From Dictyostelium discoideum (taxonomy: Eukaryota): 64,000 nt of DNA. Each line of letters starts with the position of its first letter. The first letter of the stretch is position 1. The stretch is taken from contig CM000151.3 of assembly GCA_000004695.1 (NCBI GenBank), forward strand, positions 4,896,001 to 4,960,000, in the 5' to 3' direction. The notes below the pieces were generated by a model. That model saw only the letters and a list, made by a program, of their open reading frames with translations, ran no database searches and was not told the DNA's origin. A program made the translations under genes and the position numbers. Shown here one piece after another: positions 29,122 to 38,841 of the stretch.

Positions 29122-29705
29122 TTTTTATTATTTTTTTTATTTATTTAAATTTAAAATAATTATATAGATGTTTATTTGTTTGAATAATGAATTAATAATT
29201 ATAAAAAAAAAATTTGTTTATATATTTTTTTTTTTTTTTTTTTTTCGTTTTTATTATTATTTTTAATTTTTTTATTTTTTAATTTTATTTTTTAATGAAA
29301 TTTTATAAGTTAGTACTAAAGTATTGATGAAAACATATTTGTAGTTTAAATGTCAACAACATATCAAGCTTGATTTTAAAAGGAAATCATTTTTTAAATT
29401 ATTTTTTTCCTTATAAAAAAATTATTTTATTACAAGTTACTTTAACCCCCACAAACACACACCAACACCATAAACTTACACAAGCCATAATATTTAATAT
29501 GAATTTCTATTATTCTGAACAAGTAATGGTAAATCATTATTTTAACATCACTATCTTATTTTTAACTTGTTATCGCCATTGACATTTTTTTTTTTAAAAT
29601 CATTTGGCCTCATTATAACAAGTATTTAATTCAAATATATATATATATTTTATAACAATTAATTATTCTATGAAAATTAAATATAATTTTTTTTTTTGTG
29701 TTTTG

Positions 29706-29741
<36 letters not shown>

Positions 29742-30005
29742 AAAAAAAAAACAAAACTATATAAAAATAAATCAACCTCTTTTCTGTGTTTTTAAAAAAA
29801 ATAAATCCAATTTAAAAAATATTATATTATATAACCAATTTAAAAATTTATTGTTTCATTATAAAATAAATAAATAAATAAAAGTAAAAAAAAAAAAAAA
29901 AAAAAATTAATTTTATAGCAATATAAATAAATAATTTTTATTATTTCAATTTTAAAGTCGACAAATTTTGAAAATTTTTTTTTAAATAAATAGTTATAAT
30001 TTAAT

Positions 30006-30259
30006 TTAAAAATTGTACATTTGAGGTCTGGTAAATAAAACTGCATTGTAATGAGTATTCTTTCCCGATGATTTGTTAATATCAAATGAAGTTTCAGTTG
30101 AAAATTTGGAAATATCTGATATTGTTGATTTATTTAATGAGGTAATTTGATTTAAAGATTCTATAATTAAGTGAAAAAAAAAAATAGTTAGTTTTAATTT
30201 TTTTTTTTTTTATTTTTTTTTTTAAAAAAAAAAAAAAGTTAAAACTTACTGAATAACAT
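30006..30259 (-). CDS. Small split-gene peptide family member B (54 aa); complement(join(30250..30259,30006..30160))
   Basis: ATGTTATTCA|gtaagt...tatag|. Product: MLFKSLNQITSLNKSTISDISKFSTETSFDINKSSGKNTHYNAVLFTRPQMYNF. Confidence 0.55.
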
Positions 30260-31051
30260 TTTTGATGATATATTTTCTAATTTTTTTATTATAAATAAAC
30301 TATATATGTTGAGTTTTATTTTTTAATTTTTAATGATTAAATGATTTAATGATTTAATGATTTAATAATTTAATGATTTTATAATTTATATTTTTAATTT
30401 TTATATATTTTTTTTTTTTAAAAATAAAATTCACCTTTAAGATATTTAATGATAGTAAAAGTGGAAATTTGTAATACCGAAAAAAAAAATAATGATAATT
30501 TTAATTTTATTATTATTTATAAAAAAAATATACAAGGATGAAATTTTAACAACACACTCTCACACTCACACACTCCACCTGAAAATTATTGTATTCGATT
30601 TTTTAAAATCTTAATTAAATATTAGTAAGTACAAGTAAGGTTATTAAAAAGAATTTTTGGATTAAACCCAATTTAATTTTTACAATACTTGTTATCATTG
30701 TTTATAATATTTTTTTACAAAAATAAATTAATATATATTTTAATATATCATTTATTTATACAACAAGTAAATCAAATAAATAAATATAAAAAATAAATAA
30801 AAAAACACACTATTTTTATTTTTTATTTTTATCATTTTTTAATTATATAAAAGTAATTTCAATGAATTATAATTCATATAATTTTTTATATTTTTTTTTT
30901 TTTTTTTTTTTTTTTAATAATAATTTAATAATAAATAAAAAACTTAACTAAAAAACTATATCAATTTAAAAACTATTTTTGTGATAATTTTAGATTGTTA
31001 ATTAATTTTATTTTTTATTTTATAATTTAATTTTATAATTTAAATTGATCT

Positions 31052-31086
<35 letters not shown>

Positions 31087-31227
31087 TTTATAATAAATAA
31101 TTAATAATTGTTTTTTTTTTTTTTTTTTTTTATTTTTCCCTTTTTAAAGTCGACCAATTTAATTTATAAAAATAATTTTTGATAAATCAGATTATGATTT
31201 TTTATTTTTTTAATTATTTAAAAAAAC

Positions 31228-31508
31228 CTTAAAAATTATACATTTGAGGCCTTGTGAAAATAACATTGTTGTAATGTCTACTTGTATTACAATTTGAATC
31301 ACTACTGAATTCAAATTGTTGAATGTTTTGTCCATTTTCAAAGTTTGCTAAAAACTCTGAAGAGTTTGAACTTGTTGATAAGGATGATGATGAATTTATT
31401 TGATTTAAAGATTCTGATTAAATTTTAGAAATATTAATTAATAAAATGATGCAAATTAAAAAAATTAGTTAACAACAAAATATATTTTTTACACATACTG
31501 AATAACAT
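31228..31508 (-). CDS. Small split-gene peptide family member C (64 aa); complement(join(31499..31508,31228..31412))
   Basis: ATGTTATTCA|gtatgt...aatcag|. Product: MLFKSLNQINSSSSLSTSSNSSEFLANFENGQNIQQFEFSSDSNCNTSRHYNNVIFTRPQMYNF. Confidence 0.55.
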
Positions 31509-32352
31509 TTTTTAAAAGATCTTTTTTTTTTTTTTTTTTTTTTTGATTAATTATAAAAATTAGACGATGGAGTTGAATTTTAGGATATAGAATTTGTTAA
31601 TGTTTATAAATGTTTTTTTTTTTTTTTTTTTTTTTTTGATTAATGTTTTGAATTAAAAAGTAAAAAATAAAATAAATTAAAATTATTTTATTTATTTATA
31701 TTAATTATAATGAGAAAATAATCATTTTTAAAAAAAATAGAAATTAAATTTGTAATTAAGTTATTGACCACACCAATCAAATGGGGTATATTTTTTAAAA
31801 TTAATTTTTTCTTTTTTTACTTAAAAAAAATAAATAAAAAATGATTTAACAAGTAAAAATTTATAACCCCTCTACTACAAGCAATCACAAATACAATAAA
31901 ATAGGGATAAAAACAGTACAACAAGGAAAGGTGTATATAACACAAAAAATTTAAGTAATAAAAATGTTTTTAAAATTTCATGCTTGCAATCACCATTGTT
32001 TATATTGTAAATTATTATTTATTATTTTTTTCTAATAAAAAAAAAAATAAAAAATAAAAAAATAAAAAATGAAAAAATAAATTAATTTATTTAAATTAGT
32101 TAATGTATGAATAATTTTAAAAAGGAAAAATAACAATTTTTTTAATAAATTTTTAGAGAGTTAATTTTTAAGAAATAAAAAAATACTTAAATTGGGACCT
32201 TGTTCCAAAGGTCCTTTTTTATTTAAAAAAAAAAAAAATAAAAAAATAAAAAAAAAAAAAATTTTATATAAATAATATTTAATTTTATTTTAATAATTGG
32301 TTTTTTAAAATTTTATATAGTCGGACAGTTTTGTATTTGTATTTTTAATTAA

Positions 32353-32612
32353 TTAAAAGCTATACATTTGTGGTCTTGTGAATACTGCTGCATTGTAATG
32401 TTTATTTGTTCCGACTGTTTCATTTAATTCATATAAACCAGAGGATTCAGATTGTTTATTAATTAAACCTGTTGATTTAATTAATGATGGTGATGATGAT
32501 AATAATTGATTTAATGATTCTAATTTTTTTTTTAAAAAAATATTAATATTAGTAATTATACTTTTTTTTTTTTTTTTTTTGTAAATAATAAAAAATACTT
32601 ACTGAATAACAT
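32353..32612 (-). CDS. Small split-gene peptide family member D (58 aa); complement(join(32603..32612,32353..32519))
   Basis: ATGTTATTCA|gtaagt...aattag|. Product: MLFKSLNQLLSSSPSLIKSTGLINKQSESSGLYELNETVGTNKHYNAAVFTRPQMYSF. Confidence 0.55.
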
Positions 32613-36551: not shown

Positions 36552-37237
36552 TTTAATTTTTATTATATATTTTTTTTAATTAATAATTGAAGTTAATTTA
36601 AAAACTAATAATAGTATATATATTTTATTGTAATAGTTTTTTTTATTTGTTGTTGTTGATTTTGATTTTATTGTTGAATGATGATATAAAATTTTTTTTT
36701 TTTTCTATTTAAATAAAAAATCAAATTCAATTGAGGAAATGGTAGTTAAAAGTATTGTTTTAAAAATGATGGGATAATTTGTAGTTTGTTGTTGACAACA
36801 TATCTTAAACTACATGACTTTATTTAATTTTATTTAATTTTAATTTTAATTTTTATTTTTATTCACCCACTAACCCCACCAAGCAAAAAATCACGATACC
36901 TTTCACAAGTAAAAACGACTATATTTAGTTTATTTTTCACTTGTGGTAATATTTTAAAATATTTATATATATATATACTTATATATATAAAAATATAAAA
37001 GGGTAAAAGAGGGAAAATTAAATTTTAAAAATCATCATTTTTTAAATTTATATCCTGAATTTCATAACAATATTACCAAAACAATCTCATACTTGATTTT
37101 ATTCAATTATTTGATTACATTTATTTGGTATTAAATTTTATTTGTATCAAATTTAGTTTTCTCATTTTTTTAATAAAATATTTTATAATAAAATCGAAAA
37201 AGTAAAAGAAATAATAATAATAATAATAATTTTAAAA

Positions 37238-37280
<43 letters not shown>

Positions 37281-37431
37281 AATTGTTTTATTTTAGAATG
37301 AAAAAAAAAGATAGTTTATTTTTGATTTAATGATACAAATTTATTGAATTATTTTACATTTTTTAATTTTTAATTTTTTTTTTTCTTTAATTATTTCTTT
37401 TAAAAAAGAAAAATAACAATAATCATTATAA

Positions 37432-37697
37432 TTATAATTCAAAACAATAACTTGGTTTCACAAATAAAATTGATTTTGTTGTTATTCTTAATGAGTTGAT
37501 TTCATTTGAGTTATTTAAATAATTGTTAAAATCAATTGATACATTATTTATTTTATTATATTTAATTATTGAATTTGATTTAAAATTTTGATTTAATGAT
37601 TCTAAAAATTATGTTATATAAATATATATATATATATATATTAGTAAAAATATTAATTAAGATTAATTAATTTAATTTTTTACTTACTATATAGCAT
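37432..37697 (-). CDS. Small split-gene peptide family member G (59 aa, variant start MLY and variant C-terminus); complement(join(37688..37697,37432..37601))
   Basis: ATGCTATATA|gtaagt...tttttag|. Product: MLYKSLNQNFKSNSIIKYNKINNVSIDFNNYLNNSNEINSLRITTKSILFVKPSYCFEL. Confidence 0.5.
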
Positions 37698-38207
37698 TTT
37701 ATTTTTTATATTGTTTTTCTTTTTTTTTTAAAAAATTAAAATTTTTGGATATTTGTAGAATTGAGGTGAAATAAAATATAAATAAAAAAAATAAAAATTT
37801 TAATTTCTTTTTATAAATCAAAAAAAAAAATATATTAATATATATAAAAAATAATAATAATAATAATAAAAATAAATTAAAAATATTAAGTTTATTATTT
37901 CTTTTTTTTTTGAAAAAAGGGAAAAAAAAAAAAACTAAAATACAAGTATTGTAATTAAAATGTTGATGCAGTAAAATTAATTTATTTTTATTTAATCAAA
38001 TAATAAATGAAGAATAAAATAAAAATTAATAATTTTTAAAATTTCATACATTCCATAATAAAAAAAGTTTAAAAAATTTCTTAAACTAAAATTTGTGCGA
38101 GTGTGGGTGAAATAAATTATTTTTTTTTTTTTATTTTTTATTTTTTTATTTTTTTTATTTCTTGTTTTTACTTAATTTTTATTTTCTAAAATAAAAATTA
38201 TTCCTTA

Positions 38208-38267
<60 letters not shown>

Positions 38268-38268
38268 T

Positions 38269-38530
38269 TTAAAGATTTGTCCAAAACATTTGTGGTCTTG
38301 TAAAGACTGCACTAGCTTTTACTGATGATGATAAACTATTTTGAGAATATGAAATACTAGTTAAATCATTATTTTGATGATTAAAATTATTATTTAATTT
38401 ATTATATCCATTTATATTAATTACTTGGTTTATTGATTCTATTAATAAAAATAAAGATAAAAATTTTTTTATTAATATACAATTAATAATTTATAATTAA
38501 AAAAAAAAAATTGAACCTACTAAATAACAT
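38269..38530 (-). CDS. Small split-gene peptide family member H (59 aa); complement(join(38521..38530,38269..38438))
   Basis: ATGTTATTTA|gtaggt...taatag|. Product: MLFKSINQVININGYNKLNNNFNHQNNDLTSISYSQNSLSSSVKASAVFTRPQMFWTNL. Confidence 0.5.
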
Positions 38531-38841
38531 TTTTATAAATAAAGGATTATTATTATTATTAATTAAAATTTGAATTTATTGAATTGGAATTGAAATTCAA
38601 ATTTCAAAATAAAAAATAAACAAAAATATTGAAACTATAAAATATAATTATTTATTTATTATTTTTTTTTTTTTCTTTTATAACATTTTAAAAATTTAGT
38701 TTTTTATTTTTATTTTTTTTTTTAATACAATTATTTTAAAAATAATAAATAAAAAATAATAATTTCAAAGTACAACTTACCACCAAACACACAAACACAC
38801 AAAATATCCAATTAAAATTAACACGTATATCGTGTCAAATT

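Follow-up and report, generated by a model that had tools for sequence, protein, structure and literature searches.

Shared promoter modules in a tandem array of small two-exon genes on Dictyostelium discoideum chromosome 2

When the same short motifs recur upstream of neighboring genes, they may mark a common regulatory architecture, the copying of promoters along with genes, or simple sequence of a kind that is found throughout the region. Which of these holds is the question raised by a locus in a stretch of 64,000 nucleotides (CM000151.3, positions 4,896,001 to 4,960,000), called the window here, that protein look-ups placed on chromosome 2 of Dictyostelium discoideum AX4. The interval under study holds eight small two-exon genes, every one on the minus strand, which we call A to H (ATG at window positions 29121, 30259, 31508, 32612, 33704, 36551, 37697, and 38530, respectively); a ninth member, gene Z, makes this an array of nine. 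The array proteins are uncharacterized, are 54 to 64 amino acids long, and have the common N-terminus MLFKSLNQ. The C-terminal sequence is FTRPQMY(S/N)F for A, B, C, D, F, and H, whereas E and G have FVKPCYCF instead. The DNA is extremely AT rich, with a GC content of 11 to 17% across 29 to 39 kb of the window, as an earlier note on this DNA had described for the promoters. That note also pointed to a 29-bp motif and C/A-rich blocks upstream of several of the genes, and proposed from them a shared promoter architecture and a coordinated developmental induction of the whole array.

We judge it fairly probable that the shared sequences belong to homologous RNA polymerase II promoters, that these promoters serve a small-protein family that grew by tandem duplication, and that their modules were inherited and have been kept under constraint. 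This reading draws on motif anatomy, positional regularity, conservation in five species, and developmental up-regulation, all of which were observed directly. In gene orientation, such a promoter would begin with one to four TACTTG(T) sites at about -510 to -350 (in A, B, C, D, and F), followed by one degenerate GT-rich G-box at -230 to -390, which the subfamily of E and G has inverted (C orientation). Next, at -215 to -280, would come the bipartite proximal element, (GATATGTTG)TCAAYA-N2-9-AYTACAA(A)T, then a TATA-like box with an oligo-T run behind it, and last a leader of about 100 to 190 nucleotides, within which the motif AATTAACTTCAATTA is found in D and F. The shared architecture proposed in the earlier note was borne out. 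The CA/GT blocks occupy a fixed zone with a fixed orientation, and the orthologous arrays of four other Dictyostelium species have kept them.

The modules of the array promoters

The 29-mer AATTTGTAGTTTGTTGTTGACAACATATC occurs exactly twice in the window, 252 to 280 bp upstream of the ATG of D (32864-32892) and 225 to 253 bp upstream of that of F (36776-36804), and gave 0 matches in shuffled sequence. The earlier note had described the two copies as near identical, and they are in fact exact; as it had also remarked, a looser variant, ATTTGTAGTTTAAATGTCAACAACATATC (GATATGTTGTTGACATTTAAACTACAAAT), lies 216 to 244 bp upstream of A (29337-29365), and the motif contains a palindrome, which is the 11-bp sequence TGTTG-A-CAACA. 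The A variant has its central hexamer in inverted form. The 29-mer belongs to a longer block of promoter homology, of which it is the best-conserved part, and it forms the core of a bipartite element, TCAAYA-N(2-9)-AYTACAA(A)T, that is present in C, D, F, and G and, as a variant, in A. In D and F, the element reads TCAACA-ACAA-ACTACAAAT, with its core at 32867-32883 and 36779-36795, respectively. A MAFFT alignment of the eight promoters likewise placed the motif in C and, in variant form, in A. The element of C, TCAATAACTTAATTACAA, lies at 31750-31767, and its right half is the longest invariant run in the cross-species alignment of that promoter; the element of G, TCAACATTTTAATTACAA, lies at 37949-37966, where CATCAACA is the longest invariant run. 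All of these copies are on the minus strand, and the presence of the 29-mer core in C and G goes beyond what the earlier note had reported.

The pattern TCAAYA-N(2-9)-AYTACAA matched the window five times, against 0.66 in shuffles, and four of the five matches belong to promoters of the array, those of C, D, F, and G, where each lies on the gene strand between -228 and -271. The orthologous loci of four species were also searched, those of D. firmibasis (L001) and of D. citrinum, D. dimigraforme, and D. cf. discoideum (L002 to L004), the last three of which were located via the neighboring gene encoding an MJ1316 domain. They gave 13 matches; a check of the downstream gene, made for nine of them, placed all nine 180 to 310 bp upstream of a member of the family, and one match (L001 5468) lies elsewhere. 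Taken by itself, the right half-site, YTACAAAT, occurs between -215 and -260 in five promoters (A, B, C, D, and F); B has this half-site only.

The left half of the element, the 15-mer GATATGTTGTCAACA, is invariant in ten D/F-type promoters from the five species, which makes eight exact occurrences beyond those of D and F in the window. In the F promoter, the left half is a 17-nucleotide run that is invariant in all five species. Throughout the ten D/F-type promoters both half-sites are invariant, and the spacer of 6 to 7 nucleotides alone varies, taking the forms ACAA-AC, GCAA-AT, GTAG-AC, CCAA-AT, and CCCAA-AT. The sequence GATATGTTGTCAACA is also found upstream of a D. firmibasis paralog about 450 kb from the array, with the G-box, element, and TATA box in the same order. 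That out-of-array promoter was sampled from the D. firmibasis ortholog locus; the out-of-array paralogs of AX4 include DDB_G0275825 and DDB_G0271318.

Some further sequence features adjoin the element. The promoters of E (33975-34060, -271 to -356) and G (37949-37975) both hold a conserved CATCAACA core, which in E is followed by a near-palindrome, AACAATTTTGTT, that is invariant in the five species. A DUSE-like motif of non-coding RNA promoters, TCCCATCA, adjoins the 29-mer of F and was dismissed, as D is without it. The sequence AGATATG is only a near match to the GATA-factor site WGATAR; GtaC has been reported to bind GATA, and its isolated DNA-binding domain prefers GATC. There are also what we take to be partial resemblances to the cores of STATa-type (TTGA), Myb, homeodomain (TAATTA), and TALE (TGACA) sites.

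A second motif, also absent from the earlier note, emerged from k-mer enrichment, in which the eight promoters (-520 to -121) were compared with a background of 111 AT-rich tiles drawn from elsewhere in the window. The top k-mer was TACTTGT, present in six of the eight promoters against 1.8% of the tiles (nominal P, ∼1e-9). The array makes up 15% of the window and holds 10 of its 17 TACTTGT occurrences, 8 of those 10 being on the gene strand in promoters. Twelve sense-strand TACTTG sites, all on the minus strand, are spread over seven promoters (29520-29525, 29619-24, 30632-37, 30764-69, 31850-55, 32977-82, 32999-33004, 33028-33, 33053-58, 34007-12, 36906-11, and 37943-48). The sites either precede the G-box or surround it; A, B, C, D, and F have them at positions that are conserved in the orthologs, and H and E largely lack them. 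The D promoter has four of them and the H promoter none. A search of the Dictyostelium literature for TACTTG returned only primers and unrelated matches, and no known factor emerged.

In each promoter, the main GC islands are the G-box-like blocks, which lie 190 to 415 bp upstream of the ATG. With the genes encoded on the minus strand, blocks that are CA rich on the plus strand become GT-rich G-boxes when read in gene orientation. The earlier note had claimed C/A-rich blocks for A, B, D, F, and H and a GT-rich one for G, and all were found where it had placed them. In A, the block is at 29442-29475 and GT rich in gene orientation (-321 to -354); those of B, D, F, and H are at 30548-30580, 32950-32982, 36863-36888, and 38772-38801, and a weak block of C (31766-31781) abuts the bipartite element. 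In G, the block (38092-38109) is GT rich on the plus strand and has the C orientation, CACCCACACTCGCACAAA, when read with the gene. The weak block of C is an addition to the earlier observations, as are the blocks of E, which has the same inverted orientation as G: one of C orientation, AACCCACAAACAACCC in gene orientation, at 33892-33909 (-188 to -205), and a second, GT rich on the plus strand, at 33972-33985. Apart from this last, all of these blocks are assigned to the minus strand.

A survey of 38 promoters from the five species showed how regular this arrangement is. Every promoter of A, B, C, D, F, and H has one gene-strand GT-rich block at -230 to -392. The E promoters have a C-orientation block at about -190 to -205 in three of the five species, and the G promoters have one at about -340 to -412 in four of the five. 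No G-box-like block was present in the ninth-gene promoters covered by the survey. Block orientation thus follows the protein subfamily, as would be expected if it had been fixed by descent. The published GBF response element is (T/G)G(T/G)G(T/G)G(T/G) (PMC2257962). Several overlapping matches to it are found in each of A, D, and H, and one each in C, E, F, and G. The block of B, which is without a strict match to the heptamer, is G-box-like and interrupted by A residues, and it fits the consensus loosely only. With that reservation for B, the resemblance to GBF elements that had been remarked on earlier was upheld, and GBF binding to the G-boxes of the array is plausible, with a direct precedent in the sigN arrays. 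Over the whole window, the double GBF half-site pattern was found 10 times, against 0.24 in shuffles (∼40-fold). A literature search on GBF together with "CA-rich" gave no result.

Closer to the genes, a TATA-like box, TATAAATAG, followed by an oligo-T run, is found in D at 32795-32803, with equivalents in F (36705-36712), E (33804-33812), and C (31692-31700), all on the minus strand. In C, D, and F, the box is about 160 to 190 bp upstream of the ATG; for E, the distance is about 100 bp. From what is generally known of Dictyostelium promoters, we infer that the box and the oligo-T run are the core promoter. If so, the bipartite element would lie about 45 to 85 bp, and the G-box about 65 to 180 bp, upstream of the TATA box. 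Within the leader, the motif AATTAACTTCAATTA (TAATTGAAGTTAATT) is exact in D (32658-32672) and F (36584-36598), on the minus strand. The sharing of this stretch by D and F had been seen before and is confirmed; its placement immediately 5' of the ATG is not, as the motif lies 33 to 60 nucleotides away.

Conservation across species and developmental expression

Promoters of the five species were compared by GC-weighted global alignments and with MAFFT, raw blastn of the AT-rich intergenic DNA being swamped by low-complexity matches. Gene order is kept in the sister species (H-G-F-MJ1316-E-D-C-B-A), with a ninth gene added in two. The arrays of D. firmibasis, D. citrinum, and D. cf. discoideum are one-to-one and syntenic, the small genes being mostly unannotated in the sister species, and the D. 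dimigraforme locus is partial, with H-G-F-MJ1316-E only. Between D. discoideum and D. firmibasis, the most distant pair, aligned promoter columns are about 88 to 90% identical, with many indels. The longest invariant runs in the cross-species alignments are the TATA box, both bipartite halves, TACTTGT, and the leader motif. In F, these runs are TTTTTATTTAAATAGAAA (the TATA box), AAGATATGTTGTCAACA, TTTTAACTACCATTTC, and ATTAACTTCAATTA, and the leader motif AATTAACTTCAATTA of this gene is likewise invariant in five species. In C, they are TAATTACAAATTTAATT, TTTTTACTTGTT, and the TATA box; in E, ATTACATCAAC and AATTTTGTTA; and in G, CATCAACA.

In D. citrinum, the F position (L002 9253-9498), which lies immediately upstream of MJ1316, is occupied by a gene whose protein resembles that of D. 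discoideum D more than that of F. The pattern is a hint that the D and F lineages have undergone gene conversion or differential loss.

Published RNA-seq tables list all seven annotated members of the array as developmentally up-regulated and none as growth-phase specific. For E, the Parikh 2010 time course in Kin et al. 2018 (PMC6198379, supplementary file 5) gives 0, 0, 2.8, 29.5, 25.7, 12.1, and 10.1 over 0 to 24 h; on filters, the first four values fall at 0, 4, 8, and 12 h, and onset is at 8 to 12 h. The same source gives E a value of 8.3 in prespore versus 61.4 in prestalk cells, a 7-fold prestalk enrichment, and lists it as cup specific. For the other members, we used the differential-expression lists by time point of Rosengarten et al. 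2015 (PMC4403905, Additional file 7). On filters, A, B, and H are in the list UP_Hr18_rapid, C, A, and H in UP_Hr20_gradual, and D in UP_Hr14_gradual. In suspension, where cells received pulses of cyclic AMP (cAMP) from 2 to 6 h and then 300 uM cAMP (PMC4403905), F, E, and the paralog DDB_G0275827 are in UP_Hr05_gradual, F also in UP_Hr03_gradual, D in UP_Hr05_rapid, and C in an 8-h column. Thus, F and E are up by 3 to 5 h in cAMP-pulsed suspension, F already at 3 h. The timing is staggered, with F, E, and D early, a jump of A, B, and H at 16 to 18 h, and C at about 20 h. Of the coordinated induction that had been predicted, the developmental up-regulation of the seven annotated genes was supported; induction of the array as one cohort was not.

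These observations may be joined in a simple scheme. The G-box would be a low-specificity GBF-type site that makes the genes competent to be expressed once cells have aggregated. Other factors, more specific to the family, would bind the bipartite element and the TACTTG(T) sites. Module differences between the units would then set the staggered timing, with F, E, and D early and A, B, C, and H at culmination; candidate differences are the four TACTTG sites of D and the absence of any from H, the inverted core of A, and the lone right half-site of B. Somewhat more tentatively than the common descent of the promoters, we propose that the bipartite element and TACTTG(T) may be the sites of an uncharacterized factor or factors controlling the family, with module variation producing a schedule in which the genes near MJ1316 are early and the outer ones are expressed at culmination.

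Constraint, simple sequence, or relics of duplication

Several observations weigh against inherited and constrained promoter modules. Occurrence at a similar frequency in intergenic DNA had been named beforehand as a finding that would speak against the motifs, and after open reading frames (ORFs) of 90 amino acids or more were masked, the array and the rest of the window had the same block density, 1.37 per kb of non-ORF DNA. The G-box-like blocks do not mark the array specifically. As GC islands they are the main ones of each promoter, in agreement with the earlier description; as rarities of the region they are not, given that equal density. The G-boxes are also not among the longest invariant cross-species runs, and the block of F varies between species by indels and substitutions, yet stays GT rich. 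Such turnover fits a loosely constrained, low-specificity site and fits slippage-prone simple sequence as well. Because the five species are closely related, orthologous conservation alone is weak evidence of constraint. The induction of A, B, and H at 16 to 18 h is later than the onset of E at 8 to 12 h and the rise of F at 3 h, and GBF alone cannot explain staggered timing of this kind. The identity of some columns in the published lists was itself inferred from internal blanks (the tab structure) and list order; the filter and part-16 suspension assignments are internally consistent, and the part-14 assignment, that of D, is less certain.

Alternatively, the CA/GT blocks, rather than being specific GBF sites, might be degenerate (TG)n-type microsatellites or generic promoter features, such as nucleosome-excluding GC islands, shared by most intergenic regions of Dictyostelium, and control of the array would lie in the other motifs. 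We regard that as unlikely, if the likelier of the two alternatives. Besides the equal density inside and outside the array and the varying length of the F block between species, it is favored by the sequence TGTGTGTTTGTG, which is identical in A, in H, and at 45772, by pure (TG)n or (CA)n runs at 304 and 12505, and by the late or very early timing of several members, which misfits a simple GBF switch. Generic sequence would not, however, be expected to occur once per promoter, in a fixed zone, with an orientation that tracks the protein subfamily, or to keep its GT richness where the sequence turns over. The blocks also have the same composition as the proposed GBF sites in the sigN promoters, which drive developmental reporters (PMC2257962). 

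Blocks of this type were also seen at other places in the window. A dense cluster of G-box- and C-box-like sequences, together with a (CA)10 run, lies in another intergenic region (12176-12527), and it follows that such elements are common outside the array. Further G-rich blocks, GGGGGTGGTGGGTTT (39078-39098) and GGTGGTTGGTGGTT (39210-39229), lie 550 to 700 bp upstream of H in the opposite orientation, the former kept in all five species and the latter in three; they could belong to a distal promoter of H or to a neighboring FKBP-type gene.

The motifs might instead be relics of duplication or gene conversion, promoters having been copied with their genes and recently exchanged between D and F, with no regulatory meaning. 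The D and F promoters do align over about 330 bp, of which the 29-mer is the best part, the D-like protein encoded at the F position in D. citrinum suggests exchange between the two, and the sister species are close. Against this stands the behavior of the element itself. The C and G proteins are only 29 to 44% identical to D in the alignment, and the promoters of C and G, though otherwise unalignable with those of D or F, keep TCAAYA...AYTACAA at the same distance and on the same strand. In the ten D/F-type promoters, at least four forms of the spacer occur between half-sites that do not vary, and the longest invariant runs fall on motifs rather than on random AT-rich stretches. We consider an origin as mere relics improbable, somewhat more so than generic simple sequence. 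A non-coding RNA or tRNA explanation was rejected, as no Rfam family and no tRNA was found anywhere in the window.

The gene family, its neighbors, and known promoters

The seven annotated members of the array, all named "hypothetical protein," are A (DDB_G0275229, 28863-29121, two exons, 55 amino acids), B (DDB_G0275175, 30006-30259, 54 amino acids), C (DDB_G0275231, 31229-31508, 64 amino acids, with a different 3' end in the annotation), D (DDB_G0275233, 32353-32612, 58 amino acids), E (DDB_G0275131, 33416-33704, 56 amino acids, with a CYCF-type C-terminus), F (DDB_G0275135, 36274-36551, 61 amino acids), and H (DDB_G0275137, 38269-38530, 59 amino acids). Gene G (37432-37697, 59 amino acids, CYCF type) has orthologs in four species. 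Its predicted protein has no exact match among recorded proteins, and G is for this reason probably unannotated in AX4. The ninth gene, Z (28423-28707, minus strand), has its start codon cut by an assembly gap of 100 N (28706-28805). Its predicted product is MLFDQINQISNIFKVNDYNK...TFFTRPYWSQY (in full, MLFDQINQISNIFKVNDYNKINNINNNSIQFENNKECNTNRYKGKESYNTFFTRPYWSQY). In D. cf. discoideum and D. citrinum, the ninth gene also follows A, but its sequence is D/F-like and unlike that of gene Z.

No Pfam domain was found in the array proteins. A profile search of 5.8 billion proteins returned 16, all of the array family and from D. discoideum and D. firmibasis only, among them three or four paralogs from outside the array. 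On this sequence evidence, the family looks restricted to the D. discoideum species group; more distant dictyostelids may hold unannotated copies. A literature search for the gene identifiers of the array turned up no paper that names them in its main text.

E and F are separated by an unrelated gene for an MJ1316-domain protein, DDB_G0275133 (34622-35317, minus strand), which has a G-box-like block of its own (35709-35727) about 400 bp upstream of the ATG. According to the Parikh data (Kin et al. 2018, PMC6198379), the mRNA of this gene stands at 9 at 0 h and reaches its peak, 62, at 20 h. The spacer from MJ1316 to the ortholog of E is about 4 kb in D. firmibasis (L001 11427-15480) versus about 0.9 kb in D. 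discoideum, with no gene called in it.

The closest published parallel is with the Group 1 and Group 2 arrays of sigN (SrfA-induced gene N), also on chromosome 2 of D. discoideum (Vicente et al. 2008, PMC2257962). As in the array studied here, the sigN genes are tandem two-exon small-protein genes with a very short first-exon ORF, their intergenic promoters can be aligned between paralogs, and their G-rich boxes match (T/G)G(T/G)G(T/G)G(T/G), read there as GBF sites (PMC2257962). Both groups are developmentally induced, and sigN is prestalk enriched, as is gene E (PMC2257962 for sigN). The differences are equally clear. The first-exon ORF is 10 nucleotides (ATGTTATTCA) here and 13 nucleotides in sigN. 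The proteins of the present array, of the form MLFKSLNQ...FTRPQMY or FVKPCYCF, have 54 to 64 amino acids and no richness in Cys or Gly, whereas those of sigN have 87 to 89 (about 87 to 93 across the family) and are rich in Ser, Cys, and Gly. All genes here run in one orientation, in contrast to the inverted pairs of sigN, and each promoter has one G-box, where sigN promoters have two pairs. The bipartite element and the TACTTG(T) sites are unreported for sigN. Among the 16 proteins from the profile search, none bore a sigN or hssA name. Membership in the sigN family is thus ruled out by first exon, protein length, composition, sequence, and profile search, and the likeness is one of regulation and genome organization.

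A second comparison is with post-aggregative promoters that depend on GBF and contain G-boxes or CA-rich elements, such as those of cprB, cotC/SP60, and pspA. In such promoters, GT/CA-rich elements lie a few hundred base pairs upstream of the ATG and work in either orientation; the array promoters have elements of this composition at a like distance, in both orientations. Genes under GBF control are switched on after aggregation and, in suspension, by cAMP; within the array, the time course of E fits this description, and D, E, F, and C are listed as up in suspension. Unlike such genes, A, B, and H are induced only at culmination, and F is induced very early.

Current understanding is left unchanged by the array. 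The GBF-type element is already known to be widespread, and sigN had already supplied one case of small-protein genes in clusters whose promoters bear G-boxes, to which the array adds a second. Of what is new here, the bipartite element, which is specific to the family, and the TACTTG(T) motif are the most useful. Should the motifs prove functional, the locus would be a compact natural experiment in promoter evolution, with nine paralogs in five species and a modular promoter attached to genes of differing timing, and the array could tie the G-box, the bipartite element, and the TACTTG sites to a stage or cell type.

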